This document shows positions 1,984 to 50,398 of a stretch of DNA of 50,552 nucleotides, in pieces. Under the pieces are notes generated by a model, which searched no databases, was not told the origin of the DNA, and was given only the letters and a program-made list of their open reading frames with translations. Both the position numbers and the translations under genes were made by a program. The DNA lies in the sequence record NC_019725.1. One strand, 5' to 3'. This DNA is from Escherichia phage ADB-2. Each line of letters begins with the position of its first letter. The first letter of the stretch is position 1.

Positions 1984-2002
1984 GTTTAGCAAAAAGTGCT
2001 AT
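1984..2002 (-). promoter_or_regulatory. conserved intergenic element TAGCAC-N5-TTGCTAAAC (copy 1)
   Basis: reverse complement reads ATAGCACTTTTTGCTAAAC; upstream of minus gene 1566..1928. Confidence 0.6.
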
Positions 2003-2188
2003 TTAGAATTTTACATCCTCAACAAGCTCAACCATTTTGTAACCAAGTCGATAGGAGTCGCCGAACAACAATAATCCCATAAATTCATCTTTGGTTATCG
2101 ACTCCTTACCAACTGTTCTAATCTCTCCGTTGTGAATCACAGTATCGCCGATCTTGATTTCTGATTTATGCACTAATTTCGTTTTCAT
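2003..2188 (-). CDS. hypothetical protein
   Basis: 61-aa ORF. Confidence 0.4.
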   Translation of the reverse strand: MKTKLVHKSEIKIGDTVIHNGEIRTVGKESITKDEFMGLLLFGDSYRLGYKMVELVEDVKF

Positions 2189-2203
2189 TTGTTAGTCCGT
2201 TAA

Positions 2204-2389
2204 TTAAAAGAATGCTACATAGTTTGCAATGCCTTTGGCGTCGTCGTTAGGCATTGCCTTGACAGCCAGGTCGTAACCAGCTTCTACCTTCTGCTTTGCT
2301 GATTCTTCGCTGTACCCCCAAATAACCAGAATTTTAACTACGTTTTCTTTGTTCAGGACTTTAAGGTCTTTAGTGATGCGACGTGCCAT
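2204..2389 (-). CDS. hypothetical protein
   Basis: ORF with start set at ATG (MARRITK...) having GAGGAAA RBS. Confidence 0.45.
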   Translation of the reverse strand: MARRITKDLKVLNKENVVKILVIWGYSEESAKQKVEAGYDLAVKAMPNDDAKGIANYVAFF

Positions 2390-2446
2390 TTTATTTTTCC
2401 TCAATCTCGTTTCGATGAGGTAATTATGACAAATCACACCGATCGA

Positions 2447-2467
2447 GTTTTAACAAAAAGTGCTATT
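2447..2467 (-). promoter_or_regulatory. conserved intergenic element (copy 2)
   Basis: rc = AATAGCACTTTTTGTTAAAAC. Confidence 0.6.
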
Positions 2468-3153
2468 TGCGATCGCTTTGAAAAAACCACGCGGCGACAG
2501 GGATCTTATCAGCTTCGTTTTGGCAGACTTGCCGCCAAGTTTGTTTTGCTGTGCAGAGTACCCGTCAGGCAGATTTACAGGTTTTCTCTCCGGCATGACA
2601 AAATCGTCAGAGGTCCACAGACAAGTTTTCTTCGGGTAAGCATCGCGCGGCGCAATATACATCGGGAACCAGGGGTGTGAGTCATTCTCAGGAAGATAGC
2701 CGCCATACTCCCAGGGATTGAAGGAGTGATTTGGTTTTCTCCACGCAGACGACAGGACGCTTACCGGATTCTCAATGATGTAAGTCACGCCTAGCTATCG
2801 CCAATGTTCGCAGCAATCCGGGCAGTAGCGACAGCCTTCTCCTGGAATAACGGATCGCGTTCACGCTTGCTTGCAAAATGGCGAGCGCCACTAACAGCCA
2901 GGTCAGTGCAAGGAGGGAAAGCCATAATGAAATCCGGCTTGCCATACACACCAGAGATAGCATCACGCTCAAACGCTGCGTCAATGAACACGTTCACATA
3001 CTCAATGTTCGGATGCTCCACTCTGGCATTGTACTTTGCGTAATCTCCGTGATCGGCTCCGTCAAAGTTGAAGCACATCACCTTATGACCTTGCTTTGCC
3101 AGTTCATAACCAGCAATCCCGGAACCGTCGAATAGCGACCAAATTAATTTCAT
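2450..3153 (-). pseudogene. cytosine-C5 DNA methyltransferase-like gene, frame-disrupted near 2790 (possible sequencing indel)
   Basis: N-terminal ORF has LFDGSGIAG (motif I-like) and FPPCTDLAVSG (PC motif IV-like); adjacent ORF in -1 frame begins YIIENPVS (ENV motif VI-like); spacing of motifs matches C5-MTases. Confidence 0.5.
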
Positions 3154-3213
3154 CGTGACTTCCTCTTCTGATTGGTTTATGTGCCGGACTATACCCGATC
3201 TACCCGACCGAGT

Positions 3214-3233
3214 CGTTAGCAAAAAATGCTATT
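3214..3233 (-). promoter_or_regulatory. conserved intergenic element (copy 3, variant TAGCAT)
   Basis: rc = AATAGCATTTTTTGCTAACG; upstream of methyltransferase-like gene. Confidence 0.55.
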
Positions 3234-3854
3234 CCAATAATTGCTCATTATTCCATCAGTGCTGTAATAGGTGGAATAATTTTGATTGTGATTGATTGTG
3301 AATGATGAAACGTGATTATTGCATGGTGTGCAACAGTTGGTTGATTTGTTGCTTAGAATGCAATGATTGTGAGAGGGGGGATTTAGTGTTACCCGGTTCG
3401 CCTGGTGGTCATCTCCATTTTTAGCAAAACGTGCTATCGATTACGGTTACACTTGACCGCGTGTTAACAGTTGTCTACAATTTGCCTGAATCTCAATAGT
3501 AGACAAAATTACACCAAATTACGCCTTATAATATACATATAGATATATGTATATATATAATATATAAGTATTTTTTTATTTGTATATATAGATACTATTA
3601 TCTGTAATATGGTTGTATAGCGTGTCTACTATGTTAATCGTTGGATGCTCTGATTATTGTATTCATGTTTATATATACAGTAGTTTTATCGGCTCATATT
3701 TATATGGGGAAAGCGATTAACACGATTAACACGATTAACCACACTTAAAATCGACCTGCAAGCCTTGACGCAGGCGGGTCGTCGTGTAACACTGCAATTA
3801 GAGACGCGCTGTTACGCGTTAATCATTGTGTATATTGAAAATAAGGAGAAACCT
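3223..3854. promoter_or_regulatory. AT-rich divergent intergenic region with short repeats (candidate regulatory hub / origin)
   Basis: 630 bp without convincing ORF between divergent gene blocks; TATATA-rich; 3 tandem copies of GATTAACAC (3714-3741); inverted TTGTCTAC/GTAGACAA; TGATTG repeats. Confidence 0.5.
3417..3437 (-). promoter_or_regulatory. conserved intergenic element (copy 4)
   Basis: rc = ATAGCACGTTTTGCTAAAAAT; no coding gene directly downstream on minus strand. Confidence 0.55.
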
Positions 3855-4434: not shown

Positions 4435-4680
4435 ATGAGTATGAGCAAAATTAAGCATGACGCCCTGAAAGGTATCTTGATGCGACTAAACCCAGGCGAA
4501 GCATTCCAGCTTAACCCCGAGACGTTTGGATTCAATGGTGATTATCGTACAACCTTCGAATTTGTAAGGTATGTAAAGAAAGAGTTTGGATTCGAAGTTA
4601 TTCACGCAGGTCTTATCAATGGCATCCAGACATTCATCTTTAAGCCAAATGAGATTCGTTGCTTCACACTGATGAAATAG
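4435..4680 (+). CDS. hypothetical protein
   Basis: 81-aa ORF, AGGAGAG RBS. Confidence 0.5.
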   Translation: MSMSKIKHDALKGILMRLNPGEAFQLNPETFGFNGDYRTTFEFVRYVKKEFGFEVIHAGLINGIQTFIFKPNEIRCFTLMK

Positions 4681-4695
4681 CACTTTTTGTTAAAG
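4676..4695 (+). promoter_or_regulatory. conserved intergenic element (copy 5)
   Basis: AATAGCACTTTTTGTTAAAG; TAG doubles as stop of upstream ORF. Confidence 0.6.
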
Positions 4696-4752
4696 ACCGG
4701 TCTAGCGGATCGGGTATTATCTTTTCATCGACACGATACAGAGGAAACGAAT

Positions 4753-4949: not shown

Positions 4950-5420
4950 ATGGCGACAATTACCGTATTCCTGGCTAAAGATGAGATTGATGGCGAAATG
5001 TCATTCTTCGCGTTTGAGCACAAAACCGGATCGCACTGGCATATGTACAGCCACTACACGGTCATCGATATCAACTCATACCGCGCAAACTCACTTACTG
5101 AAAAGCTGAGTTGCTTCATTGGAGCTATCAAGGTGAACAATGGCTGCGAGTGGGAAGATGAGCACGAAGAGCGCCGCATGTGCAATATGATTAACCCGGT
5201 CTATCTTGAGTCGTTCGAGCTTGATGCTGATGTGGCTATTAAGGTGAGAAAGTCGGGTGAGTTGTTGCCAGGGATGCGTGTGCTGACTGGTTACTCAGGT
5301 CGTAAGGTATGGCGCACTGTATCAAAGATTCGCCATCGTTCGGCAACATGCTATAGCGTATTCTTTGATGATGGTTGGAATATGATGTCCGGCAGTGAAG
5401 TAAAGTATCTCACCAAATAG
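4950..5420 (+). CDS. hypothetical protein
   Basis: 156-aa ORF. Confidence 0.5.
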   Translation: MATITVFLAKDEIDGEMSFFAFEHKTGSHWHMYSHYTVIDINSYRANSLTEKLSCFIGAIKVNNGCEWEDEHEERRMCNMINPVYLESFELDADVAIKVRKSGELLPGMRVLTGYSGRKVWRTVSKIRHRSATCYSVFFDDGWNMMSGSEVKYLTK

Positions 5421-5436
5421 CACGAATTGCTAAATC
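5416..5436 (+). promoter_or_regulatory. conserved intergenic element (copy 6)
   Basis: AATAGCACGAATTGCTAAATC; TAG = stop of 4950..5420. Confidence 0.6.
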
Positions 5437-5497
5437 AGCGCAGCAAGGAGGCTGTATATTAAACTAATTGAAACAAACGATTCTAGATGAGGAAAGA

Positions 5498-5758
5498 ATG
5501 AATAAGTCAGAGTTTATTGGAAGGGTAATTGATTGCAATTTAAGATTTGAAGTTAAAAAGGTGAGAGTGAACAAGGATAGAAATTATGGCCTTGACATTC
5601 AAACATACTCCCTCTGGCTGGTTGGCGAGCACAGCTCTGATGATACAATCACAATGGGGATTGATGCGCAGCCTCTTCTTGTAAAGTTTAGAAGCATTGA
5701 TAAAGCAAATAAAGAAGCTGAAAAGTTTAACAGATGGATAGGTAGCACGAATTGTTAA
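5498..5758 (+). CDS. hypothetical protein
   Basis: 86 aa, GAGGAAAGA RBS; C-terminus reads through the next element copy. Confidence 0.5.
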   Translation: MNKSEFIGRVIDCNLRFEVKKVRVNKDRNYGLDIQTYSLWLVGEHSSDDTITMGIDAQPLLVKFRSIDKANKEAEKFNRWIGSTNC

Positions 5759-5762
5759 AAAC
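5742..5762 (+). promoter_or_regulatory. conserved intergenic element (copy 7)
   Basis: GTAGCACGAATTGTTAAAAAC followed by hairpin GGGGTA...TACCCC carrying TATAGT. Confidence 0.6.
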
Positions 5763-5823
5763 GGATCGGGGTATCTTGCTATAGTTACCCCATCAAAACG
5801 AGATACCAATCAGAGGATTAACC

Positions 5824-6573: not shown

Positions 6574-6765
6574 ATGGCTGATTTTATGCACCAAATGATT
6601 GCAGTATTCAAAGGCAGTGATGACCAGGAAGTGAAAGAGTGCTTTACTGTCGACAAGACTTATAGTGCATCGCTAACCAGTTTCGGGAATATCTCATTAC
6701 TTGATGATAACGGCGACCCCTGGATATTCGACGAAGACACCGATTGCTTCGAAATTAAAGAATAG
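6574..6765 (+). CDS. hypothetical acidic protein
   Basis: 63 aa from ATG; stop TAG is part of next element copy. Confidence 0.45.
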   Translation: MADFMHQMIAVFKGSDDQEVKECFTVDKTYSASLTSFGNISLLDDNGDPWIFDEDTDCFEIKE

Positions 6766-6781
6766 CACTTTTTGTTAAAAA
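6761..6781 (+). promoter_or_regulatory. conserved intergenic element (copy 8)
   Basis: AATAGCACTTTTTGTTAAAAA then hairpin GGGGTT...AACCCC with TATAGT. Confidence 0.6.
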
Positions 6782-6836
6782 TAAATTCCGGGGTTGCGAT
6801 ATAGTAACCCCATCGACAACGAACGAGGACGAGAAC

Positions 6837-7355
6837 ATGAAAATTAAATTACTTTGCACTGGCGGTTACAAAGGCTTTACCCGAGATCTGGAAGCAGACC
6901 CTATCGTGGTTGATGCGGTGAAGTGTGATTCCAGTACCGGAGGCTACCGCGTTAAGGTTGACGATCTGGTTAAAGCTGGCGTGTACGATCTGGACTATGG
7001 ACTTTCGGTTAGCCCTGTATTTGGTCCGGCTGACTTTAACGAGAATGACGGAACGATGTTCTTCTTCGAATGGGAAGTCCAAGCAAATCCTAAGCCGCGC
7101 AAGGTTCGACTTCTCAGTAATGGCGGCTACCCGCTGCGACAAGGCTATGAGAACCGCACATTCCCAGTTATCGTGGACTTTGAAGAAATTACTAGCAATC
7201 TGGCATACGTTAACGATGAGCAGTTGCGAGCCGTTGGATTTGTCGGTGGGATGAATAAAGAGGCACTTTGCTTCTTCCACTGTAACGCCGAGCCGTTCGA
7301 TATTGAGTGCGAGTTAGTTACTAAGCACGAATTGTTAAAAGGGGATTCGTCCTGA
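6837..7355 (+). CDS. hypothetical protein
   Basis: 172-aa ORF. Confidence 0.5.
   Translation: MKIKLLCTGGYKGFTRDLEADPIVVDAVKCDSSTGGYRVKVDDLVKAGVYDLDYGLSVSPVFGPADFNENDGTMFFFEWEVQANPKPRKVRLLSNGGYPLRQGYENRTFPVIVDFEEITSNLAYVNDEQLRAVGFVGGMNKEALCFFHCNAEPFDIECELVTKHELLKGDSS
7322..7340 (+). promoter_or_regulatory. conserved intergenic element (copy 9)
   Basis: TAAGCACGAATTGTTAAAA; followed by hairpin GGGGATT...AATCCCC. Confidence 0.6.
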
Positions 7356-7356
7356 C

Positions 7357-7365
7357 TGGTATAAT
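7357..7365 (+). promoter_or_regulatory. extended -10-like box TGgTATAAT
   Basis: Perfect TGnTATAAT 31 nt upstream of the ATG at 7396, inside the hairpin following element copy 9. Confidence 0.4.
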
Positions 7366-7395
7366 CCCCACATCAACCACTAAGAGGAAAGCATC

Positions 7396-7902: not shown

Positions 7903-8051
7903 TGGCGGCGTGGATTTTGATTATCTTGATGAGTACCGGGCCAGATCACGTATACATGGAAAGCCAACAATCATGCAACAAGGCTCGGGAAGTAATTGCA
8001 GAAAACAAGCCGTTCGGATACGAAGTAAAAACAATGTGCGTTAAACGATAG
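7902..8051 (+). CDS. small hydrophobic protein (49 aa)
   Basis: ATG overlapping upstream TAA (TAATG); hydrophobic N-terminus MAAWILIILMSTG; stop TAG is part of element copy 10; below the ORF-track size cutoff. Confidence 0.4.
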   Translation: MAAWILIILMSTGPDHVYMESQQSCNKAREVIAENKPFGYEVKTMCVKR

Positions 8052-8066
8052 CACGAATTGCTAAAC
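8048..8066 (+). promoter_or_regulatory. conserved intergenic element (copy 10)
   Basis: ATAGCACGAATTGCTAAAC then hairpin GGCCA...TGGCC with TGATATAGT. Confidence 0.6.
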
Positions 8067-8131
8067 CTTCCGCAAGGCCATTTGATATAGTGGCCTTATT
8101 GAAGCATGGCAACCAATCAGAGGAATCAGTT

Positions 8132-9421: not shown

Positions 9422-9624
9422 CAGCAGAAGATGCAGCACGTGAAGCAGTGGAAGGAATGCGACCAAATACCTCCAGAATCGCACACTACTACAAATTTGA
9501 CGTATCAGCAGTGCAATTGGTCCATGAAATTTTAAGGCTCCCACAAGTCGATTCAGCGCGCGTGGTGACGTGCTTAAAAAATTATTTTTGCATCACTATT
9601 AAAACGAATAGCACGAATTGCTAA
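9406..9624 (+). CDS. hypothetical protein
   Basis: 72-aa ORF; C-terminus reads through element copy 11. Confidence 0.45.
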   Translation: MATIMTAEDAAREAVEGMRPNTSRIAHYYKFDVSAVQLVHEILRLPQVDSARVVTCLKNYFCITIKTNSTNC

Positions 9625-9627
9625 AAC
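9607..9627 (+). promoter_or_regulatory. conserved intergenic element (copy 11)
   Basis: AATAGCACGAATTGCTAAAAC then hairpin AGGGGAAT...ATTCCCCT. Confidence 0.6.
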
Positions 9628-9681
9628 CTATCAAGGGGAATGCGCTATGATTCCCCTACACCAAAAAACGAGGAAGCACGA

Positions 9682-10128
9682 ATGAAACACCTAATCTGTA
9701 TTGAAGCACCTAACGACGAGTACACTCTGCATGGTTTAGGTATGTTCAAAGGTCACTACATTACAGCTAAGATTCAAGATGACAAGCTGGATGATGGCGA
9801 TCTGGAAATCACATCGAAAGATGTTAATCCTTACATCATGCAGAATCTTGGAAATAACGAATATATGGCCTACGGCTGCAATGCGGTGTACAAGCATGTC
9901 AATATCCGCAAACGCGTTGTTCGAGCGTTCAAGAAAATTGCAATGAAATACTGGAAGATGAGCAAGAAAGATGCCGGGCGCTGGGCGCGTAACGCTGCTG
10001 ATTTATACTTCTATAGCAGCGGAGAGCCAGCCAACTTCCTGATCGATGAAATGATGGAAAATTATAGCGGCACATTCTGCCAAAGTGACTTTGACGCCTG
10101 GGTTGGACGCGAGTTAGATTACTGGTAA
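9682..10128 (+). CDS. hypothetical protein
   Basis: 148 aa from ATG with GAGGAAG RBS. Confidence 0.5.
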   Translation: MKHLICIEAPNDEYTLHGLGMFKGHYITAKIQDDKLDDGDLEITSKDVNPYIMQNLGNNEYMAYGCNAVYKHVNIRKRVVRAFKKIAMKYWKMSKKDAGRWARNAADLYFYSSGEPANFLIDEMMENYSGTFCQSDFDAWVGRELDYW

Positions 10129-10147
10129 TAGCACGAATTACTAAAAC
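10127..10147 (+). promoter_or_regulatory. conserved intergenic element (copy 12)
   Basis: AATAGCACGAATTACTAAAAC then hairpin AAGGGCAT...ATGCCCTT. Confidence 0.6.
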
Positions 10148-10211
10148 TTGCTCAAGGGCATTTGTTAGAATGCCCTTCGTTGAGTTAAGCAACCAATCAG
10201 AGGAATAAATC

Positions 10212-10931: not shown

Positions 10932-11504
10932 ATGAAAACAGCTATCATTTTAAACGGTGCACCTGGTGCTGGAAAGGACACTATCGGATGCATCCTGGCT
11001 GACACTTACGATCATGTAGCTTTGCGCAGCTTCAAAGCACCAATGTTTGAGATTGCTCGGGCAATCTTGGGTGAAACTAACTACGAGTATTTCATGTTCT
11101 TGTATGAGGACCGTAGTTACAAAGAAGAGCCAGCATCAATCCTGAACGGTAAAAGCCCGCGCCAGTTTATGATCTGGATTAGCGAGGAAGTCATCAAGCC
11201 GCAGTTCGGAAATCGATTCTTCGGTATGCGAGCGGAAAGCAAGGTGAAAGAGTCGCACTCACTTTCGGTATTTACTGACGGGGGATTCAAAGACGAGATC
11301 TTGCAAATGATTGAAGGAGATATCCAGGTCAAGCTATGCCGCATACATCGCAACGGTTGCAACTTCGATAACGACAGTCGCGATTATATCTATCTGGACG
11401 ATATGATCGGGGTTAACGGTTATCAGGAATGTGACTTCTTCTCTGTCGAAGGTCATCCAGAAATTACCGCTCAGCACATAGCCGCTACGTTCATCAACAA
11501 ATAG
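10932..11504 (+). CDS. P-loop nucleotide/nucleoside-monophosphate kinase-like protein
   Basis: N-terminal Walker A ILNGAPGAGKDT, reminiscent of phage dNMP kinases; adjacent to HAD phosphatase. Confidence 0.55.
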   Translation: MKTAIILNGAPGAGKDTIGCILADTYDHVALRSFKAPMFEIARAILGETNYEYFMFLYEDRSYKEEPASILNGKSPRQFMIWISEEVIKPQFGNRFFGMRAESKVKESHSLSVFTDGGFKDEILQMIEGDIQVKLCRIHRNGCNFDNDSRDYIYLDDMIGVNGYQECDFFSVEGHPEITAQHIAATFINK

Positions 11505-11520
11505 CACGAATTGCTAAAAC
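11499..11520 (+). promoter_or_regulatory. conserved intergenic element (copy 13)
   Basis: AAATAGCACGAATTGCTAAAAC; TAG = stop of kinase gene. Confidence 0.6.
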
Positions 11521-11576
11521 GTCGGTGGGGTGATTTGATATAGTTACCTCATCGACAACGAAGAGAGAAAATCGAA

Positions 11577-13287: not shown

Positions 13288-13311
13288 TAACCCGCTTCGG
13301 CGGGTTTTTTT
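13288..13311 (+). terminator. rho-independent terminator
   Basis: CCCGCTTCGGCGGG hairpin + TTTTTTT. Confidence 0.8.
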
Positions 13312-13323: not shown

Positions 13324-13332
13324 TGGTAAAAT
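13324..13332 (+). promoter_or_regulatory. extended -10-like box TGgTAAAAT
   Basis: Directly after terminator and overlapping start of element copy 14. Confidence 0.35.
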
Positions 13333-13349
13333 AGCACTAAATGTTAAAC
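13329..13349 (+). promoter_or_regulatory. conserved intergenic element (copy 14)
   Basis: AAATAGCACTAAATGTTAAAC immediately followed by RBS AAGAGGA and the terminase small subunit ATG. Confidence 0.6.
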
Positions 13350-13364
13350 AAAGAGGATGGATTT

Positions 13365-15501: not shown

Positions 15502-15511
15502 GATATAATCA

Positions 15512-15539
15512 GGGCTGTCAATTGACGGCCCTTTTTATT
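15512..15539 (+). terminator. hairpin + T-run between terminase and portal (attenuator/terminator-like)
   Basis: GGGCTGTCAA/TTGACGGCCC stem (1 mismatch) + TTTTTATT. Confidence 0.45.
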
Positions 15540-15548
15540 GGAGGAAAC

Positions 15549-20014: not shown

Positions 20015-20042
20015 CATAAAAACACTTTGACGCTTTAACAAA

Positions 20043-20063
20043 AAGTGCTATTATTGAAGCCGT
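20043..20063 (-). promoter_or_regulatory. conserved intergenic element (copy 15, antisense to late genes)
   Basis: rc = TAATAGCACTTTTTGTTAAAG; located between plus-strand late genes. Confidence 0.5.
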
Positions 20064-20067
20064 GAAC

Positions 20068-29998: not shown

Positions 29999-30001
29999 AT
30001 C

Positions 30002-36295: not shown

Positions 36296-36369
36296 ACGGC
36301 ACAAATAGCTAAACAAATAATTAATGAGGTGTTATAATGCACCTCATACACCAATCAGGAGAAGTTAAG

Positions 36370-39392: not shown

Positions 39393-39412
39393 AATAGCAC
39401 GAATTGCTAAGC
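39393..39412 (+). promoter_or_regulatory. conserved intergenic element (copy 18, plus-oriented between minus-strand genes)
   Basis: AAATAGCACGAATTGCTAAGC. Confidence 0.5.
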
Positions 39413-39452
39413 ATAGATTTTATCATTGTGATACACGCCTTGCAATGGGCAA

Positions 39453-40409: not shown

Positions 40410-40431
40410 TTCCAGATCTCCAAAATAAAAA

Positions 40432-40462
40432 ACGCGTAGAAGGATGTTAACCCGCTACGCGT
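40432..40462 (-). terminator. hairpin with flanking T-run between regulator-like gene and primase (attenuator-like)
   Basis: ACGCGTAG...CTACGCGT 8-bp stem, 15-nt loop; T-rich on minus strand after stem. Confidence 0.35.
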
Positions 40463-40467
40463 CGTTT

Positions 40468-40488
40468 GTTTTAACTAAAAATGCTATT
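40468..40488 (-). promoter_or_regulatory. conserved intergenic element (copy 19)
   Basis: rc = AATAGCATTTTTAGTTAAAAC; overlaps stop of 40471..40923. Confidence 0.55.
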
Positions 40489-40923
40489 AGTCGTTCCGAT
40501 ATCTTCCTTCTTCACGACGCGCATAAATTTCTTGTTCTTGCATCGCTTCTCAAGGCACTTGCCGTTACCGTCAAACTTCAGGTCGAATCGCAACCATGCG
40601 GCCCTAAACCCTTTACACCCCTGTCGGCGGTAAGCGCGATGCGCAGCTTCAGCACCTTGCCATGAAATCATATTGCGTTCTTTCCAGCCTTGCACCGTCT
40701 GATTGCTAACTTTTAGAGCCTTTGCGCAGGCCGCTGGGCCACCGTAATATTCGATAAGAGCATCAAGTCGCGCTCGCAGTCCGGCGCGTGTTTCTTCTTT
40801 ATGAATATAGAACCCACATCTCTGGCGAGGCCTTTTGTCTTTACCTCGTCGCGTTCCGTTGTTACCATTAATGTGACGTTTATCGATTTCACCAGTTGAC
40901 TCTGCGATACGTTGCATATTCAT
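40471..40923 (-). CDS. putative DNA-binding regulator (HTH-like segment, Cys-rich C-terminus)
   Basis: 150 aa from ATG with AGGAGAA RBS; segment GGPAACAKALKVSNQTVQGWKERN resembles Cro/YdaS-type HTH; basic; transcribed divergently from helicase. Confidence 0.4.
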   Translation of the reverse strand: MNMQRIAESTGEIDKRHINGNNGTRRGKDKRPRQRCGFYIHKEETRAGLRARLDALIEYYGGPAACAKALKVSNQTVQGWKERNMISWQGAEAAHRAYRRQGCKGFRAAWLRFDLKFDGNGKCLEKRCKNKKFMRVVKKEDIGTTNSIFS

Positions 40924-40935
40924 CTCAATTCTCCT

Positions 40936-40956
40936 GTAGCACTTTTTGCTAAAAAC
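40936..40956 (+). promoter_or_regulatory. conserved intergenic element (copy 20)
   Basis: GTAGCACTTTTTGCTAAAAAC, 15 nt upstream of TGtATTAT box (40972-40979). Confidence 0.6.
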
Positions 40957-41017
40957 GTTTACTGTATGTCGTGTATTATAGCGTAAACGATACAACGATT
41001 CAAAGGATTAAATAGCC

Positions 41018-43035
41018 GTGACAATTAACATCAAAAAGCAAATCGCATTACTTGGCGATGACTACATAAAACGCACTCAAGATCGATTCACTGTCGGCGA
41101 GGTCGTTCCTTACCCGTACCAAGTTGTTGCTTATGCCGAGATCGCGAAACGCCTATCAAATTATGAGCATCCATTCTTCGTTAAAGCGTCTGTATCAGCA
41201 GGTAAGACAATCATCTTCGCTATGGTGGCAAAGCAGTGTCAGAAAATGGGCTTAAAAATGCTCGTTCTTGCTCGTCAGGGTGAGATTGTCGATCAGGATA
41301 GTGAGGAGATTGACAACTTCGGGGTAACTAATTCCATATTCTCAGCCTCATTAGGTATTAAGTCCTGCTACTTCCCGATCGTGTTGGATCTGAGGGTACG
41401 GTTGCAAATGGCCTAGATAATGAGTTGGCTGACTTCGTCCCGCATGTAATTGGGATCGACGAATGTCATCAGGTGGATTGGGAAGACCTTGCGCAAGCCA
41501 TTGATGGCAAGGAAACAATGGAACAAATGAGGGGCGAGAAAGGGAAAATTATCATGGACGGAGATATTCCTCTGATTGGTAATGATGGAAAACCTCTTCT
41601 TGGAACTAAGCGCAGCCAGTACACTATAGTAATCATGGAAATGATGCGACGCTGTAAAGAGGTTCACGGGCACGATCTTAGAATATTTGGTATGACTGGA
41701 TCTGAATTTCGTGGCGTAGTTCCTATTCTGGTAGAGAATCCGAAAGCATTGGGATTCTGGCGTGAGCGAGTAACTGATATCGACACAAACTATCTGATTG
41801 AGTTCGGCTCTGTCGTTCCGACTATATTCGGATCAACAGACGGAGTTCATTACGATCTGGATAAGTTCAAGGCGTCGAGCGAGGACGGAGTGCAGGACTT
41901 TACAGAGAAAGACATGAAGGCTATGGAAGATGAGATCCTTCATGATAAATCTCTTACTCAGCGAATCATGCAAATGGTTGCCAAAAAGGCTGAAGAGCGT
42001 AACGCGGTACTGATTACATGCGCCGGGGTGCGTCACTGTAAAGAGGCGGCGGCTGCACTTCCACCTGGAAGTACCTATGCAATTATCACTGGCGAAACAG
42101 ACACCAAAACGCGCAAGAAGATTCTGGACGATGTAAGGGCAGGAAAAATTAAATACACCTTTCAGGTAATGGCGCTCACTACTGGCGTTAACGTTCCAAA
42201 TTGGGATTTCAGTGTCATACTCCGCAAGATAGGGTCGCTAACACTGTTGATTCAACTTTTGGGTAGGGGTATGCGTCTGCTTAAATCATGGCAGGTTGCT
42301 GAGGGAATGGTTAAGCAGGACCATCTGGTATGGGATTTCGCAGGTACGATGGATGAGTTGGGTCAGCTTTATTTCGATCCGATACTTGAGCAGGCGCAAT
42401 TCCAAAAGCGTTTTGAAAACGGAAAAGACCCGAAAACGTGTCCGAAGTGTGGTTGCGTAAATAGCTTCTACGCTCGCAGATGCATTAACGTCATCGACGG
42501 CGAGCGTTGCGATCATTTCTGGACTTCTCAGATTTGTGAGGACCAGGTTGACGAGCGCACAGGAAAAATCCTTGTTAAAGGATGCGGTGCAGAGAATGAC
42601 GTTGTGGCCCGAGTCTGTCGTTGTTGTGATGTTTCGCTTGTCGATCCTAACCTGAAGTTATCCGGTAAGGCGTACACTAAGAATGACTGGTATGAAGTAA
42701 AGAATTTTGAGGTTACGCTAACCAAAAACCAGAAAGGCATAATATACAAATACACGCTGATTAACGACGATGGTGATGAGTTCAAGGCGTATGAAAAATT
42801 CTTCCCCGAGTCAGACTCTAAGATTTGCGGTACGCTATGGAAAACGAAAGGTGTATTACCTCATGTGTCAGATCCTAAAATGCGTCGCTACTTTATCGGA
42901 ATGAAGAACGCTATCAAGATCGTGCAATACTCTCATCATATAGCGCATCCGGTACGCGTTACTCATAGGCGCAACCAGAAGAAGGAAGATATTATTTCAC
43001 GCAAAGATTTCGGTATGGAGGATATCCCGGAATGA
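41018..43035 (+). CDS. superfamily-2 DNA helicase with C-terminal zinc-ribbon (frame disrupted near 41365-41400)
   Basis: N-terminal ORF has Walker A SAGKT; continuation in -1 frame has DExH box GIDECHQ and later CPKCGC/CRCCD zinc-ribbon motifs. Confidence 0.75.
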
Positions 43036-43448
43036 TTACAGATAAAGGCGATTACCTAGAGTTTTACGAGCGAGATCCTAGCGATACGCGAAAGGAGGAC
43101 GCTCATCAAGTAGACTGCGTGTCTTGGTTGAAATACAATTTTCCTCAGCTTCTATTTTGGCACACAGTTAACGAAGGTGAAAAAACAATCACTTCGGCAC
43201 TTAGGGATGAGCAGGCTGGATTGCTTAAAGGCGTATCAGACTTCGTTATCCTGATAGGTGTAAACTCACGCTACCCGTTTGCAGCTATCGAACTCAAGCG
43301 AGTTAATAAGTCCGGAAAAGGAAAGGCATCACCAGTCAGCGATAAGCAAAGGGAGTTTCTCAAAAAGGTTCGGGATCGCGGTGGATTCTCTGCCGTTGCA
43401 TACGGATTTGAGCAATTCAAGCTGGCGATATACGATTTAACTAAATAG
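43032..43448 (+). CDS. VRR-NUC domain nuclease
   Basis: 138 aa; VSDFVILIG...AIELKR (D...E-x-K) pattern; immediately downstream of helicase. Confidence 0.65.
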   Translation: MITDKGDYLEFYERDPSDTRKEDAHQVDCVSWLKYNFPQLLFWHTVNEGEKTITSALRDEQAGLLKGVSDFVILIGVNSRYPFAAIELKRVNKSGKGKASPVSDKQREFLKKVRDRGGFSAVAYGFEQFKLAIYDLTK

Positions 43449-43464
43449 CACTTTTTGTTAAAAC
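43443..43464 (+). promoter_or_regulatory. conserved intergenic element (copy 21)
   Basis: AAATAGCACTTTTTGTTAAAAC; TAG = stop of VRR-NUC gene. Confidence 0.6.
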
Positions 43465-43515
43465 TGCCGGAATGGAATCTGGCATTATTATCTCACCGAA
43501 ACGAGAGGATTAAAA

Positions 43516-44229
43516 ATGAAAGACTTTAATGATATCGAAACAATCGACTTTGCAGAAACTGGGTGCTCATTCACTCGCGAAGCAATAGCATCAGGAGGTT
43601 ATTATCAAGCATTGAAAACGCCAACCTGCAAAGAGATTTCAGGACGTCGATACAAGGGAACCAATACACCTGACGCAGTTCGTGATTTATGGTCAACCCC
43701 ACGCGAGGTTATCGCATACCTTGAGGGTCGCTACGGAAAATATGATCTCGACGCTGCGGCAAGCGAAGAAAATAAAGTTTGCGAGAAGTTTTATTCCCAG
43801 GAAACAAACTGCTTAAAACGTTGGTGGGGTAAAAATAAGCACGTATGGTTAAATCCTCCTTACAGTCGACCTGATATATTCGTCAAGAAAGCGATTGAGC
43901 AAATGGAGCACAACAACCAGATCGATATTCTTTTACCTGCCGATAACTCGACGGCGTGGTTTACTGAGGCTCGACAGCACGCGGCTGAAATCATCTGGAT
44001 TGAAGCTGATTTGACTGAGGATATTGACGGCAATGAATACGCACGATCCGGTCGTCTAGCTTTCATATCCGGTGAAACTGGAAAAGCCGTAGACGGCAAT
44101 AACAAAGGTTCGGTTATTTTTATTATGCGCGAACTTAAAGAAGGTGAGACGCAACAGACTCACTACATCCCAATCACAAGTATTTGTCCTTCCGTTAAAA
44201 ACAAACGAGCAAAGGTGAGAAAAGTATGA
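43516..44229 (+). CDS. dam: DNA N6-adenine methyltransferase (phage Dam type)
   Basis: DLDAAAS and NPPYS motifs characteristic of phage Dam MTases. Confidence 0.75.
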   Translation: MKDFNDIETIDFAETGCSFTREAIASGGYYQALKTPTCKEISGRRYKGTNTPDAVRDLWSTPREVIAYLEGRYGKYDLDAAASEENKVCEKFYSQETNCLKRWWGKNKHVWLNPPYSRPDIFVKKAIEQMEHNNQIDILLPADNSTAWFTEARQHAAEIIWIEADLTEDIDGNEYARSGRLAFISGETGKAVDGNNKGSVIFIMRELKEGETQQTHYIPITSICPSVKNKRAKVRKV

Positions 44230-44477
44230 TGAGCGAAAAAATGGTTCCTGTTAAATTAACTGATCAAGGGTTATGGCTTCTTTATCGCGCTACGTGCTGC
44301 GAAATTATGGAGCGAAACGGATTAACTAAAGATGTTATTGGTTGCGATTTATGGGAGTTTACAAGTTCTCTTGATATGTCGTTCGATGAGATAAAGAATA
44401 AACACATCGAGCATTGGCCTTCAATCATTCAGAAAGACGTAGAAGAACTTAAATCCGACACGATCTTACAGCACTAA
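44226..44477 (+). CDS. hypothetical protein
   Basis: 83-aa ORF overlapping upstream stop; C-terminus reads into element copy 22. Confidence 0.45.
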   Translation: MMSEKMVPVKLTDQGLWLLYRATCCEIMERNGLTKDVIGCDLWEFTSSLDMSFDEIKNKHIEHWPSIIQKDVEELKSDTILQH

Positions 44478-44487
44478 TTGCTAAAAC
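44468..44487 (+). promoter_or_regulatory. conserved intergenic element (copy 22)
   Basis: ACAGCACTAATTGCTAAAAC followed by hairpin TACCCG...CGGGTA and TATAGT. Confidence 0.55.
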
Positions 44488-44543
44488 TACCCGGCGAAAG
44501 TCGGGTATAGTTATTTCATCAAAACGAAATGAGGAATAAGAAG

Positions 44544-45313: not shown

Positions 45314-46465
45314 ATGTCACAAGCTAAAATCACTACCGAGCAACTTATCGAAGAGCGCATGAGCGGCCTTACACTTCGCGAGATCGCGGAAAAGTACGGT
45401 ATGCACATCCGCACAGTTGAAGCGCGTCACGCCAAACTTGCAAAAGAAGGTCACTTCCACGGTAACGAGCATGTTGCTAAGAACGTACCGGAAGGATTCA
45501 TGGTAAAAGGCACATCAACGATGATTCGCGGCGATGGGACCGAGGTAGTGCGATGGGTTAAGACCGATCAGGACCGTGAGAAGATTGCGGCAATGATGGA
45601 AGCAGCGCGTATTGCATTCTGTGAAGACTTGCCGAGAGCAAAACCAACTGAGCTACTCACATCGCAAGGGCTTACAACCGCTATTGGCAAGCTGGCACTC
45701 TACCCGGTGTTCGATCTTCACATTGGCGCGCTTGCTCACAAGCATGAATGCGGAGAGAACTACTCTACAGACGTAGCGGAAAAAGTGCTGAATGACTTCT
45801 TTAGCTACGCGATCGATATTGCCCCGAGCGCAGAGAAGGCTGTTCTGTTAATCGGCGGCGACTTCCTTCACTCAGACGGTCTTGATGCTGTTACCCCGGC
45901 AAGCGGTCACGTTCTGGATCAGGATTCACGATATGCGAAATTGGTGCATGTGGCTATTCGATCGGTGCGACGAGCTATCGACAAAATGCTGACTAAACAC
46001 AAAGAGGTCGAAGTTCAGGTTATCGAAGGGAACCACGACCAGGCCGGAATGATTTGGCTACGCGCTGCAATGGCTGCATACTATGAGGACGAGCCGCGAG
46101 TATTCGTTGACGTTAGTCCTATGATTCTGCATAAGACCCGCTGGGGAAATACCTTGTTGGGATACACTCACGGTCACACGATGAAAAAGGCAGACACGCG
46201 ACTTGCAGCGATGGCAGCAGACTTCCGTGCAGACTTCGGTGAAAGCAAATACGTGTATACTCACAGTGGACACTGGCACCATCAAACAATCACAGAACAC
46301 TCGTTAGGTATTGATGAGGTTCACGGGCAGTTAGGCGCGAAAGACGCATATGCTGCGCGCGGAGGGTGGAGATCATATCGCCAGGCTGCGGTAATCATTT
46401 ACGATAAGCAGTTTGGTGAAATCGGTCGATTCATCTATCGTCCAGAAATGACAGGATCGCACTAA
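45314..46465 (+). CDS. calcineurin-like metallophosphoesterase with N-terminal HTH-like segment
   Basis: 383 aa; GDFLHSD, GNHD, GHTH/GHWHH metal-binding motifs; N-terminal LTLREIAEKYGMHIRTVEARHAKL looks like a helix-turn-helix. Confidence 0.65.
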   Translation: MSQAKITTEQLIEERMSGLTLREIAEKYGMHIRTVEARHAKLAKEGHFHGNEHVAKNVPEGFMVKGTSTMIRGDGTEVVRWVKTDQDREKIAAMMEAARIAFCEDLPRAKPTELLTSQGLTTAIGKLALYPVFDLHIGALAHKHECGENYSTDVAEKVLNDFFSYAIDIAPSAEKAVLLIGGDFLHSDGLDAVTPASGHVLDQDSRYAKLVHVAIRSVRRAIDKMLTKHKEVEVQVIEGNHDQAGMIWLRAAMAAYYEDEPRVFVDVSPMILHKTRWGNTLLGYTHGHTMKKADTRLAAMAADFRADFGESKYVYTHSGHWHHQTITEHSLGIDEVHGQLGAKDAYAARGGWRSYRQAAVIIYDKQFGEIGRFIYRPEMTGSH

Positions 46466-46476
46466 TCGCCAAAAAC
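46456..46476 (+). promoter_or_regulatory. conserved intergenic element (copy 23, degenerate)
   Basis: ATCGCACTAATCGCCAAAAAC followed by hairpin CCCGAA..TTCGGG and TATATT. Confidence 0.45.
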
Positions 46477-46528
46477 TCCCGAAGGGATTCGGGTATATTG
46501 ACCACATAGAAAACAAAGAGGGTATTTC

Positions 46529-47942: not shown

Positions 47943-48156
47943 ATGCATCAGCCCACATGTAACTTTCGTTCGTGAGTTTTGCGTATTCGCGAACTTCAAT
48001 TTCACAGGTGTCTCCGTACATCTCAGCGACCTTTTTCTCATTCGCTACCGCTGATTCCTCGGTCCATCCATCAGCTTTGCTGTATAGGGTAGGAATTTCA
48101 CTGCTAGTGCCGTCAGAGTGATTGTAAACGCGAACTACTAAAAATTTGTTAGCCAT
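47941..48156 (-). CDS. hypothetical protein
   Basis: 71 aa from ATG with GAAGGA RBS; downstream of element copy 24. Confidence 0.45.
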   Translation of the reverse strand: MANKFLVVRVYNHSDGTSSEIPTLYSKADGWTEESAVANEKKVAEMYGDTCEIEVREYAKLTNESYMWADA

Positions 48157-48216
48157 GATGATTTCCTTCATGTCGTTTCATTTCGATAAAACAAATATAC
48201 CCGATACGAGATCGGC

Positions 48217-48238
48217 GTTTTAACAAAAAGTGCTATTT
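48217..48238 (-). promoter_or_regulatory. conserved intergenic element (copy 24)
   Basis: rc = AAATAGCACTTTTTGTTAAAAC; its TAG is the stop of minus ORF 48233..48436. Confidence 0.6.
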
Positions 48239-48344
48239 GTATCTTTTGACATGGAGAAGTAACTCACCTTCCTGGTCGCAAAGATTGTGCTCACTGTCGT
48301 TGTTGGCCCTCATCGAAGTGAGCAGTAGGCTAAGTAATCCTTGC

Positions 48345-48752
48345 TCAAATTCTTCTTTCGTAAGCTGGAGCCTTGCGCACAATTCGACGTTCCGATCTAT
48401 CAACGTTTCTACGTTCGCCAAACAATTCTTCATCACTCATTTCTCCAATGTGCATCATTTCCCACGTATATCGATTGTTGTAGCCATCAATACACATCAG
48501 CTTCATCATTACCGGGCGCTTGATCTTTCCCTTGCACCAGTAAACTCCATCCTTGCGATCTAAGTAACCCTCAGTCACGCAACGAGCGCAAAACTCCTTA
48601 GATAGCGAGCTTGTAAATTCACGGCGAGTCATTCCAGCAGCCTTAGCAAATCGCTCACTTTCCTTGTGGGCGTATATAAATTTCGCTATGTGCTGTCGTG
48701 TGTATTTGTCGTAACCTTCGCAGAACCTGAACAGATCTAAAAGAAGAAGCAT
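48345..48752 (-). CDS. hypothetical protein
   Basis: 135-aa ORF; downstream ORF 48233..48436 overlaps in another frame and may be its continuation or a separate small gene. Confidence 0.4.
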   Translation of the reverse strand: MLLLLDLFRFCEGYDKYTRQHIAKFIYAHKESERFAKAAGMTRREFTSSLSKEFCARCVTEGYLDRKDGVYWCKGKIKRPVMMKLMCIDGYNNRYTWEMMHIGEMSDEELFGERRNVDRSERRIVRKAPAYERRI

Positions 48753-48756
48753 ATTA

Positions 48757-50325
48757 TTAACCCATCAGTCGAGGGTTTATGAAAACAATATCATCAATCC
48801 GGCAAGTGTAGTTCATCTCTTCGAGCGTGATCAGCAGGCTGTCGATTCTCTCAGATACTTTCTGTTGACCGTTGAACGGCGTAACATTCCGGCACTTTGC
48901 AACAATGCTATGAATCGGAGCGCGCCCTTTGTTCTTCTTTGCGATCTCAGTGATAACATCAATCAGCTTACGAGATTCAGCCTCATCACCAGCATACCCG
49001 GCAGCGCTGGCAGACGACAGATAAGTCCTGGAAAGCTCATTGAAGATCATGATTGCTTCCTGCATCGTTTCAAGGTCAATCTCACGGTTGGAACGGTTCG
49101 GTGATTCACCCTCCCAATTCTTGATCGTGTGGAGAACTGAAGCAATACGCAAGGCGTGCTTATCGAACTTGCCGAGATGACCGCGTAGCATTGAGTGAGA
49201 GTATTTCCCACCTGCGGCGAAATCCGGTTCCATCGCCTGACGCGCAAGGTTTAATTCACGCATAGCATTACGGCTTACAGAGAGAACAACGTTTTCCTCC
49301 TTCATAATGTTGTGCACGAGTCGATAATATTTACTCACCAATCCTCGATCGACTTCCTTATACAGCGCATCACCATTTTCATCACAAAGAATACGAGTAC
49401 CTAAAAGCGGTTCCTCACGAACTAAAAGGAAACGCTCAGATACGCCGATGCCTCGTTGGCCTGCGTCCATGATACCCTTGATTGTTTCATCCTGCGCAAT
49501 AACGCAGATGGAACCGACCGGGCAAAGTGATAGGTTGTTATCCTGGTTGGAACGCGCTACCTCCATGTGGTTTTTATCCCACGCCTTAAGGATAAGTTCA
49601 CTGTTTGACTTCTTGTCTGAACCGCCATAAGTCAGGCCGAGCAATGTGTTGATTGCTGTCGCCTCATCAGAGATTACGGAGAAGTGACCTTGAACAGCCG
49701 CCACCTTCGCAAGACCTTCAGGTGTAGGATCTGATACCGCGAAAACAATATCAGCCATCTTCTTGATCTTCTCTTCCAGTTTTTCTTTGTCCTCGTACAG
49801 CGCCGCCGTCGTGTTACCCTTCGGGTCGTTTTTAATTTCCTTCTCGACCTGACGTAGCTGACTGGTTAATCGGGTGCGTTCCTTTTTGCGCTCTTCATTC
49901 AGTCGCTGAATTTCTGCACGCATAGGCGTAATCGCTGCGGAGTTAATCGCAGATTTACCTGTTGAAGGTGGCTGGCTGATTACCATGTAAAGAGCGGTAG
50001 GTTGTTCTTCTCCGTGATATTGAACCCAAAACTTCCCGAGCATCGCGGCTGAGATGCACCCAATGAAATGAGCGTAAGCAGACGAAACAGGAAACTGTAC
50101 AGACTCAGCCTTTGCCTTTGCATATTCGAATACCAGGTTATCGCCACCTAACGAAATCAGAGGGAACTTATCGTTGCCGCTATTGATATCGATCGGATCT
50201 TGCCAAAATGAAACTGAGTCACCATAGCTGTTTTCACGAATTGCGATCGCCACCGGATTAACTCCAGTGCTATTGGCGATCTCAATAATCTGTTGGTAAT
50301 TCAGTTTTGGCTTAATATTAAACAT
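48757..50325 (-). CDS. putative P-loop ATPase (DUF3987-like, replication-associated?)
   Basis: 523 aa from ATG with AAGGAG RBS; Walker A-like PPSTGKS and possible Walker B VISDEA. Confidence 0.4.
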   Translation of the reverse strand: MFNIKPKLNYQQIIEIANSTGVNPVAIAIRENSYGDSVSFWQDPIDINSGNDKFPLISLGGDNLVFEYAKAKAESVQFPVSSAYAHFIGCISAAMLGKFWVQYHGEEQPTALYMVISQPPSTGKSAINSAAITPMRAEIQRLNEERKKERTRLTSQLRQVEKEIKNDPKGNTTAALYEDKEKLEEKIKKMADIVFAVSDPTPEGLAKVAAVQGHFSVISDEATAINTLLGLTYGGSDKKSNSELILKAWDKNHMEVARSNQDNNLSLCPVGSICVIAQDETIKGIMDAGQRGIGVSERFLLVREEPLLGTRILCDENGDALYKEVDRGLVSKYYRLVHNIMKEENVVLSVSRNAMRELNLARQAMEPDFAAGGKYSHSMLRGHLGKFDKHALRIASVLHTIKNWEGESPNRSNREIDLETMQEAIMIFNELSRTYLSSASAAGYAGDEAESRKLIDVITEIAKKNKGRAPIHSIVAKCRNVTPFNGQQKVSERIDSLLITLEEMNYTCRIDDIVFINPRLMG

Positions 50326-50377
50326 CACAATAAACTCCTTAGTTGACGGTGTAAATGATACACTGCCAATGGTATAC

Positions 50378-50398
50378 GCTTTTTGCAAAAGTGCTATT
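50378..50398 (-). promoter_or_regulatory. conserved intergenic element (copy 25, variant)
   Basis: rc = AATAGCACTTTTGCAAAAAGC; immediately after stop of partial gene. Confidence 0.5.

Follow-up and report, generated by a model that had tools for sequence, protein, structure and literature searches.

A 21-nt direct repeat, aaATAGCACnnnTTGnTAAAA, was described in the 2024 re-annotation of phage TLS, where 18 of its 21 copies are intergenic and where it is found about 76 nt 5' of start codons, is co-oriented with transcription and falls into A, T and G subgroups by its central triplet (German et al., PMC11447400). The repeat was also found in T1, Rtp and Rogue1, and its function was left open between a stoperator, an enhancer-binding site and an UP element, with only three sigma-70-like promoters recorded in TLS (PMC11447400). 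Here we analyzed the identical element in Escherichia phage ADB-2 (NC_019725.1), whose 50,552 nt are referred to as the window. The initial annotation of this DNA had not recognized the element as a described motif, which the TLS report contradicts; the motif is already known, and what is new, with strong support from sequence, orientation, spacing and family-wide conservation, is its apparent identity as a marbox in class II promoter geometry, together with one class I copy. Neither the fixed -10 partner of the element nor the marbox identity was reported in the TLS account, and this reading was absent from the searchable literature: no paper linking marbox, MarA, SoxS or Rob with T1-like phages was found in the literature searched, nor any start-site or transcriptome data for the T1 family (the T1 2004 and Rtp 2006 genome papers were outside the search).

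The marbox is an asymmetric site for the monomeric AraC-family activators MarA, SoxS and Rob, and for RamA in Klebsiella. It consists of two recognition elements 7 bp apart (PMC8811837; for the GCAC/AAA reading also PMC9178005). Class II marboxes face forward near -41 and overlap a -35 region without a recognizable hexamer (PMC10268841, PMC12052159, PMC8811837), and class I marboxes point the opposite way, about 50-73 bp upstream of the start, at promoters with a good -35 hexamer (PMC10268841, PMC12052159, PMC6900184). Rob, which is constitutive and present at a high level, activates micF via an A site GCAC and a B site CAAA overlapping the -35, and in the solved micF complex a single Rob at the -35 position contacts the alpha C-terminal domain and sigma-70 region 4 (PMC9178005). 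Measured directly from the sequence, E. coli micF reads acaGCACTGAATGTCAAAACaaaaccttcactcgcaacTAGAATaactcccG(+1), in which the core GCACTGAATGTCAAA is followed by 20 nt and then by TAGAAT, with an AAAAC tail as in the phage.

The reading of the phage 20-mer as a near-consensus marbox was supported by three descriptions of the host site. The initial annotation had suggested a weight-matrix scan of this and related phage genomes; with a matrix built from 87 Salmonella MarA/SoxS/Rob/RamA sites determined by chromatin immunoprecipitation sequencing (ChIP-seq; PMC10268841 Table 1), the window gave 23 matches of at least 14 bits against 0.91 in shuffles (largest 4), and the arrays were kept in T1, TLS, Rtp and KP36. 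The phage copies mostly scored 14-18 bits, compared with a median of 11.2 and a maximum of 17.9 for the ChIP sites themselves, and the copy at 44471 was identical to the matrix consensus. The published consensus GCAHWWWWTGYYAAA (PMC6900184) had 23 matches at no more than one mismatch, 11 of them perfect, against 1.72 expected, and AYnGCACnnWnnRYYAAAY (PMC3709825) had 21 at the same tolerance against 1.07 expected. The likeness to the class of promoters typified by micF of E. coli, Salmonella and Klebsiella covers GCAC-7 bp-AAA, the AAAAC tail, the forward orientation, the position near -41, the missing -35 and the 20-nt spacing. The phage differs from that class in carrying about 22 copies in one virulent genome of 50 kb, where the host sites are scattered over the chromosome, and in boxes that are near consensus where those of the host are degenerate.

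The flanking sequence showed the 21-mer to be only the 5' portion of a longer cassette, which measures about 52 bp up to the predicted start and has the order element, 18 nt, (TG)nTATAnT -10 box, six C-rich nt and A(+1). The TATAnT 18 nt past the 21-mer lies 20 nt past the 15-bp core GCAC...AAA. Five Drexlerviridae genomes contained 98 strong cores (at least 14 bits); 69 of these had a -10-like hexamer exactly 20 nt past the core, 9 had it at 19 nt and 5 at 21 nt, where the background is about one per offset. The consensus of 75 gap-free aligned promoters was AAATAGCAC-K-W-W-TTG-Y-TAAAAC, 13 unconserved bases, (T)G-n-TAtAaT, six C-rich bases and A. A-11 and T-7 served as selection criteria for this set, so their invariance carries no weight, and it is the other positions and the offset peak that count. 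With +1 placed from the -10 box, the 19-mer spanned -50 to -32 with its centre at -41; G-14 of the extended -10 was present in 63 of the 75 promoters, and an A at +1, seven bases past the hexamer and a typical start point, in 65. G-47, C-46, A-45, A-35 and A-34 were invariant, C-44 was kept in 70 promoters and A-33 in 74, and the centre was W-rich, the conserved pattern being GCAC plus (T)AAA with seven A/T-rich bases between them. Since the box and the -10 were conserved and the 13 intervening bases were not, these appear to be two separately recognized elements at a fixed distance. There was no recognizable -35, as -36 to -30 reads TAAAACn with 2-3 of 6 matches to TTGACA, and neither early region had an excess of canonical -35/-10 promoters (33 found for 31.0 expected in one, 20 for 22.5 in the other). 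We consider it very probable that the element is the activator-site half of sigma-70 extended -10 promoters. A role as a phage-specific promoter element had been among the initial proposals; its association with promoters and its marking of transcription units held, and its phage specificity was lost with the match to the host marbox consensus.

The core had initially been read as a dyad, as expected for a dimeric protein. TAGCA/TGYTA is the only symmetric part of the element, the right arm of this apparent dyad is TGTTA in 31 of the 75 copies, and the near-invariant A-50, C-44, T-40, A-34 and A-33 have no mirror partner; such asymmetric conservation suits a monomer that carries two unlike helix-turn-helix motifs and does not suit an operator for a dimer. 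Other identities were also tried. As a -35 hexamer, which needs 16-18 bp, TTGYTA was ruled out by its distance of 22 nt from the -10 TATAnT. As an extended -10 with a stem-loop in the 5' untranslated region (5' UTR), TGYTAAAAC was ruled out because the last base of the hexamer was T in 0 of 75 promoters and TATAnT at 20 nt was near-universal. The Lrp site is YAGHAWATTWTDCTR, of which the outer bases alone match, leaving C-44 and A-34/A-33 unexplained.

ADB-2 is a T1-like siphophage of the Drexlerviridae, Tunavirus group, with 88-94% identity to the Shigella and Escherichia phages ISF002, pSf-2, SH6 and JMPW1 and a gene order common to all. Small early genes occupy the minus strand at 0-3.2 kb and 47.9-50.5 kb, plus-strand early genes run from a non-coding region (3.2-3.8 kb) up to 13.3 kb, packaging, head and tail genes extend over 13.3-34 kb, and recombination, replication, methylase and lysis genes over 35-48 kb. 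The pattern AATAGCAC-N3-TTGYTAAAAC had 21 matches at no more than three mismatches, against 0.13 expected from shuffles (largest 2), and a five-mismatch scan recovered within a few bases all 25 positions on which the initial annotation had based its count of at least 25 copies, five of them degenerate (3214, 7322, 29978, 46456 and 50378). Three further copies were found at 326-346 (-), 841-861 (-) and 36295-36315 (+). Orientation with the downstream gene, initially given as 22 of 25, held for the bulk of the copies, with the exact count being 21 of 25 (exceptions 3418, 20032, 23793 and 39393). Twenty-two copies in the window had a forward box with a correctly placed -10, all 22 facing the downstream gene, and the predicted 5' UTRs of the cassettes were about 20-33 nt. 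The TAG of the element had been said to serve frequently as the stop codon of the upstream gene. A stop codon of an upstream open reading frame (ORF) of at least 45 codons indeed lay within or abutting the element in 21 of the 29 copies examined; TAG of ATAGCAC itself was that stop in only 8 (7 without a doubtful 67-codon ORF at 48219), the others being TAA and two TGA. As the stop codons lie in the element, the intergenic space is essentially the cassette alone. The copies are given below in genome order, with predicted -10 boxes and starts (+1).

295-346 (-): class II; element 346-326, -10 TAAAGT 307-302, +1 295; core GCACGATTTGTTAAT, weakest tail of the set.
809-861 (-): class II; element 861-841, -10 TATATT 821-816, +1 809; 15.6 bits; spacing 21 nt.
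1953-2003 (-): class II; element 2003-1983, -10 TATAGT 1965-1960, +1 1953; 17.2 bits.
2416-2467 (-): class II; element 2467-2447, -10 TGtCATAAT 2428-2423, +1 2416; 15.5 bits; exact published consensus.
3181-3233 (-): class II; element 3233-3213, -10 TATAGT 3193-3188, +1 3181; 11.4 bits; first leftward promoter by the non-coding region.
3418-3488 (+): class I-type; reverse marbox 3418-3438, promoter TTGACC(3453)-17-TACAAT(3476-3481), +1 3488; 16.2 bits.
4676-4727 (+): class II; -10 TATTAT 4715-4720, +1 4727; 15.5 bits; spacer hairpin 4697-4713 is terminator-like.
5416-5467 (+): class II; -10 TATATT 5455-5460, +1 5467; 17.1 bits.
5741-5792 (+): class II; -10 TGcTATAGT 5780-5785, +1 5792; 15.5 bits; GGGGTA/TACCCC around the -10.
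6761-6812 (+): class II; -10 TATAGT 6800-6805, +1 6812; 15.5 bits; GGGGTT/AACCCC around the -10; fold z -4.6.
7321-7372 (+): class II, in the 3' end of ORF 6837-7355; -10 TGgTATAAT 7360-7365, +1 7372; 15.5 bits.
8047-8098 (+): class II; -10 TGaTATAGT 8086-8091, +1 8098; 17.1 bits; arms AAGGCCA/TGGCCTT.
9607-9658 (+): class II; -10 TATGAT 9646-9651, +1 9658; 17.1 bits; arms AGGGGAA/TTCCCCT; gene start probably 9682.
10127-10178 (+): class II, 5' of the polynucleotide kinase/phosphatase gene; -10 TGtTAGAAT 10166-10171, +1 10178; 13.9 bits.
11500-11551 (+): class II; -10 TGaTATAGT 11539-11544, +1 11551; 17.1 bits; fold z -6.3.
13330-13350 (+): late-type, after terminator 13289-13306 and TGgTAAAAT, directly 5' of the small terminase gene's ribosome-binding site and its ATG (13365); no downstream -10; 15.2 bits.
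20032-20052 (-): reverse copy between the gene end at 20014 and a terminator hairpin (about 20059-20079, by eye), 5' of the major head gene at 20106; 15.5 bits; kept in T1 and TLS.
23793-23813 (-): reverse copy in a 5' UTR, directly before the ribosome-binding site of the late gene at 23834; TACGAT at 20 nt on its own strand; 14.1 bits.
29979-29999 (+): late-type, degenerate forward copy; a terminator and TGTATAAT precede it, and it ends 4 nt short of the tail-tip gene's ATG (30002); 11.9 bits; same place in T1 and TLS.
36295-36345 (+): class II, 5' of the Erf-like annealing protein gene; -10 TGtTATAAT 36333-36338, +1 36345; 16.4 bits.
39393-39445 (-): tail-fibre promoter TTGCAA-17-TGaTAAAAT (39445-39417) with a marbox at 39393-39413 (written on the plus strand; in either orientation relative to this promoter), at about +1 to +14 and just before the ribosome-binding site; 11.6 bits.
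40437-40488 (-): class II, 5' of the primase gene; -10 TAACAT 40449-40444 in the loop of a ACGCGTAG/CTACGCGT hairpin, followed by a T-run; 12.6 bits; T1 equivalent annotated as a terminator.
40935-41003 (+): class II, helicase gene; box 40935-40955, -10 TATTAT 40974-40979, +1 40986; 17.2 bits.
43444-43495 (+): class II, 5' of the Dam methylase gene; -10 TGgCATTAT 43483-43488, +1 43495; 15.5 bits; spacer hairpin 43465-43484.
43835-43887 (+): weaker copy inside the Dam gene, TATATT at 21 nt; 14.2 bits; kept in T1 and TLS; function uncertain.
44467-44518 (+): class II; core GCACTAATTGCTAAA, -10 TATAGT 44506-44511, +1 44518; 18.0 bits; spacer hairpin 44488-44507.
46455-46506 (+): class II; -10 TATATT 46494-46499, +1 46506; 14.7 bits.
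48187-48237 (-): class II; -10 TATATT 48199-48194, +1 48187; 15.5 bits; spacer hairpin 48215-48201.
50348-50398 (-): degenerate class II, 5' of the DUF3987 gene; -10 TATCAT 50360-50355, +1 50348; T1 equivalent 16.9 bits.

The copy at 3418-3438 was the sole reverse-oriented copy without a -10 of its own. Its centre lies at -60/-61 from the predicted start of the promoter TTGACC-17-TACAAT (10/12 matches to the consensus, 5/6 in the -35), which corresponds to class I marbox geometry, and the same arrangement was present at the left end of T1; because the two phages are closely related, this counts as one observation. Another four to five copies were located just downstream of late promoters (13330, 29979, 39393 and 23793) or, in the case of 40935-40955, in the 5' UTR of a regulator gene. 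That the late copies at 13330 and 29979 follow a terminator (13289-13306 for 13330) and a TGnTAAAAT or TGTATAAT box agrees with the initial description. The box at 40935-40955, part of the helicase promoter, falls within the 5' UTR of the regulator gene that diverges from it, and the class II helicase promoter overlaps, face to face, a canonical leftward promoter of the regulator (TTGAAT 41003-17-TATAAT 40980-40975). Within 40958-41003 the two facing promoters share a palindromic -10, TATTATA, with the 7-bp inverted repeat CGTTTAC/GTAAACG on its two sides. Use of one promoter probably excludes use of the other.

The arrangement was conserved across the family. Marboxes with a correctly spaced -10 numbered 18 in T1, 17 in TLS, 18 in Rtp and 16 in Klebsiella phage KP36, which belong to different subfamilies and genera, compared with 1 in lambda. 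The exact pattern (perfect consensus, 20 nt, and a hexamer with A2 and T6) was present 8-10 times per T1-like genome and 0 times in both lambda and the E. coli loci. A query with the 52-nt cassette hit 856 phage records, nearly all of phages on Klebsiella, Escherichia, Shigella, Salmonella, Citrobacter or Enterobacter, and among the matches listed in a scan of viral contigs for the exact pattern, multiple copies occurred almost only on contigs of 41-54 kb. One record with the same cassettes, PP134917.1, is labelled "Pseudomonas phage PsgS01F"; its sequence matches Escherichia phage vB_EcoS_UALMA_PCEc3 at 100% identity (over 83% of the query) and CEB_EC3a at 99.4%, and owing to this identity with E. 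coli phages the Pseudomonas host label is doubtful and says nothing about host dependence. Separately, the HNH endonuclease genes inserted in the late region of Rtp (6319 and 21396) each bring a marbox cassette of their own, which suggests that cassettes travel with mobile genes.

Searches of the phage itself gave no candidate for an activator of this kind. The best E-value of MarA in phmmer against all 564 six-frame ORFs (at least 40 residues) was 0.7, Pfam detected no AraC-family domain in the 20 larger uncharacterized ORFs, and PHROGs likewise gave no MarA-like match for these 20 ORFs. The only recognizable phage DNA-binding regulator was the product of 40471-40923 (-), in which residues 55-83 form a single Cro-like helix-turn-helix (P22_Cro in Pfam at E 4.5e-5, short of the curated cut-off; a transcriptional regulator in PHROG at E 3e-76; in the PDB only a weak match to P22 Cro, E 0.83). 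As no phage activator was found, the protein is most likely supplied by the host, and since the earliest promoters need host proteins alone and the listed hosts are all enterobacteria with these regulators, host MarA, SoxS or Rob (RamA in Klebsiella) is the simplest reading. We think it probable, with some reservation, that host MarA, SoxS or Rob drives the roughly 22 phage promoters as promoters of the class II marbox type, and that Rob, being constitutive at a high level, is probably the best candidate in unstressed cells; the start sites, the protein binding and the dependence on an activator in vivo are what we infer from sequence, spacing and conservation. In such a promoter the TAAA end of the box would sit in place of the -35 hexamer, with the (extended) -10 TGnTATAnT 20 nt after the core and transcription predicted to start at the conserved A 7 nt past the -10. 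By analogy with the micF complexes, one helix-turn-helix would read GCAC and the other (T)AAA, and the bound activator would touch the alpha C-terminal domain and sigma-70 region 4 and thereby recruit host RNA polymerase to a promoter lacking a -35. Rob would be the main activator in unstressed cells, with MarA, SoxS or RamA adding to it under stress.

T4 middle promoters carry a MotA box in place of the -35, upstream of a normal sigma-70 -10, with MotA and AsiA supplied by the phage. The likeness lies in an activator box substituting for the -35 in many phage promoters. The MotA box differs in being centred at -30, having another sequence and serving an activator of the phage's own, whereas in ADB-2 the box is that of the host and no phage activator was found.

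Several observations weigh against a host activator. In a Keio single-knockout screen with the TLS-like phage LL5, only receptor, lipopolysaccharide and two chaperone genes were required, and rob, marA and soxS were not among them (PMC7229145), so that no single one of these three is essential; redundancy of the three regulators or activator-independent extended -10 activity could lie behind this result. Unstressed cells contain little MarA or SoxS, and most of their Rob is reportedly sequestered when inducers are absent (PMC10268841), yet T1-like phages grow well in ordinary cultures. The extended -10 G is present in 84% of the copies, and the promoters could be partly activator-independent. 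The copies just past the late promoters (13330, 29979, 39393 and 23793) misfit an activator role. Finally, the phage boxes are far more uniform than the chromosomal ones and have an extra conserved AA at -52/-51, which could point to a different protein of narrower specificity or leave room for a dedicated phage protein of the same specificity.

Such a phage-encoded binder, either the Cro-like regulator of 40471-40923 (-) or an uncharacterized early protein using the element as an activator site or operator, would make the marbox likeness a matter of convergence or mimicry, and we regard it as unlikely. All relatives have one conserved regulator gene, and this, the partial dyad TAGCA-N5-TGYTA, the greater uniformity of the boxes compared with host marboxes and the operator-like copies past late promoters and in the regulator's own 5' UTR would all suit it. 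A single Cro-type helix-turn-helix should, however, favor a symmetric site, and the five near-invariant positions named above break the symmetry, as does the right arm, whose G/C is T in 31 of 75 copies. Moreover, the earliest promoters must fire prior to any phage protein, no AraC-like protein with two motifs was found among the phage ORFs, and the exact micF-type spacing would have to be a coincidence.

It is more doubtful still that the element is an intrinsic contact of RNA polymerase, a site resembling an UP element at which the alpha C-terminal domain would bind, and that it boosts extended -10 promoters without any activator. An UP element was among the proposals of the TLS authors (PMC11447400), and the location at -52 to -31, the A/T-rich ends and the frequency of G-14 (84%) are in line with it. 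What is conserved, however, is a pattern of two marbox recognition elements 7 bp apart. The UP element consensus consists of A/T only, from -59 to -38, and G-47, C-46, C-44 and G-38, invariant or nearly so, are foreign to it.

Least probable is an element acting on RNA or blocking transcription, whether as a weak hairpin, as a signal for processing or translation at gene ends, or as the stoperator-like elongation stop proposed by the TLS authors (PMC11447400). In its favor, transcripts of upstream genes include the element at their 3' end, with stop codons inside it, C-to-T changes in TGYTA preserve a G.U pair and the late-region copies lie in 5' UTRs. Against it, the stem has just 5 bp, the rigid spacing of 20 nt to a -10 box, a DNA signal, lacks an RNA rationale, no Rfam match was found in the window, and these are virulent phages with no L5-type repressor. 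The initial proposal of a 5'-UTR signal is likewise unlikely for the roughly 22 promoter copies, since in these the element lies upstream of the predicted start; the late copies would be transcribed. The stoperators of mycobacteriophage L5 resemble the phage boxes in being numerous, asymmetric and oriented with transcription, and in their location in short intergenic regions, and differ in binding the repressor of a temperate phage with no tie to a -10, where ADB-2 has a -10 at 20 nt and is virulent.

With host MarA, SoxS or Rob as the favored binders, the boxes downstream of late promoters suggest that the same protein may also act as a brake, perhaps within a titration switch. In its full form, which is a speculative scheme with little probability in our view, the whole early program of the Drexlerviridae would be wired to host MarA/SoxS/Rob/RamA, and the boxes at about +1 to +30 of late and regulator promoters would be brakes. 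Replicating genomes, in their hundreds and with about 25 near-consensus boxes each, would titrate the limited supply of activator, turning early transcription off and releasing late transcription, which would provide a temporal switch without a phage regulator and drain the mar/sox/rob defense of the host. Under this titration scheme phage development would be tuned by antibiotics, oxidants and bile salts. If the marbox reading is true, a virulent phage family would entrust the greater part of its early transcription to an activator of the host stress response, and phage growth would be tied to regulators of multidrug resistance (acrAB-tolC, micF), which bears on phage therapy combined with antibiotics and, via RamA, is relevant for Klebsiella phages (weberviruses). 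The cassettes would also be a source of promoters that are compact, strong and responsive to an activator. For T1, which belongs to the original T phages, the marbox reading gives a concrete and cheaply testable hypothesis about its promoters.

Folding analysis showed that the cassettes contain stem-loops as well. In 79 of 90 promoters from the five genomes, the segment between the box and +6, ends included, forms a helix of 4 bp or more, which flanks or involves the -10 (in or beside the loop) in 62 and lies wholly in the spacer in 17; such a stem-loop over the spacer or -10 in most cassettes is a further difference from the micF class. The arms vary between copies yet stay complementary (GGGGTT/AACCCC, AAGGCCA/TGGCCTT, AAGGGCA/TGCCCTT, AGGGGAA/TTCCCCT). 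The stem-loops in the window are located as follows.

Stem-loops: 6775-6796, 8059-8082, 9619-9642, 10139-10162, 36309-36332, 40431-40463 (-), 44488-44507, 43465-43484, 4697-4713 and 48201-48215 (-).

Because the helices are in different registers, a covariation count in a common register was not feasible, and fold z-scores against shuffles were used in its place. The mean was -2.88 for the sense and -1.66 for the antisense strand (p = 3e-11), and this better folding of the sense strand indicates G.U pairs and hence selection on RNA. Since the predicted start lies past the 3' arm, the folded RNA would have to come from upstream read-through transcripts. The helices are most likely terminators, attenuators or 3'-end stabilizers of the upstream message, overlaid on the next promoter. 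A terminator scan flagged 4 of the 22 cassettes (4697, 43465, 44488 and 48215), with the -10 region as the T-rich tail, and in a fifth (40437-40488) a stem followed by a T-run was seen by eye; most cassette stems are without a T-run. Four of the annotated terminators of T1 are located in the spacers of marbox promoters, and Rfam gave 0 matches in the window at the gathering score. The PeSL (promoter-early stem-loop) cassettes of T4-type phages, reportedly described by Arbiol et al. in 2010, are similar in being repeated intergenic cassettes of about 50-80 bp with a promoter and a stem-loop at gene boundaries, and both could aid modular gene shuffling. They differ in that the stem-loop there precedes an ordinary sigma-70 early promoter, and here it lies within an activator-type promoter.

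Downstream of the cassettes, the leaders were conserved as A(+1)TCGAAACGAG or ATCAACCAATCAGGAG (for example 11551-11576, 8098-8128 and 1953-1929 (-)), and ACCAATCAGRRG served at least 9 times as the ribosome-binding context, including that of a late gene (23814-23833). The program-made ORF starts at 9640, 4687, 36337 and 8090 precede the predicted transcription start; the true starts would be later ATGs with a ribosome-binding site 5' of them, such as 4753 and, probably, 9682.

Compared with ISF002, single-base indels (one or two gaps per gene) break four genes of the record into two or three ORFs, namely those of the small terminase (13365-13888), portal (15498-16831), helicase (41018-43035) and tail-tip protein (30002-33419). 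These indels are likely sequencing errors of the record and not biology, and the motif analysis is unaffected by them. The DNA methyltransferase gene (2450-3153) may be split likewise.

The non-coding region at 3234-3764 (530 bp) separates the divergent early gene blocks and is the counterpart of the terminal repeat region at the end of the T1 genome. Inside it are AT-rich "atatatac" runs, GATTGTG repeats (about 3284-3305) and CGATTAACA three times in tandem (3716-3742), and a pac site or an origin may be present as well.

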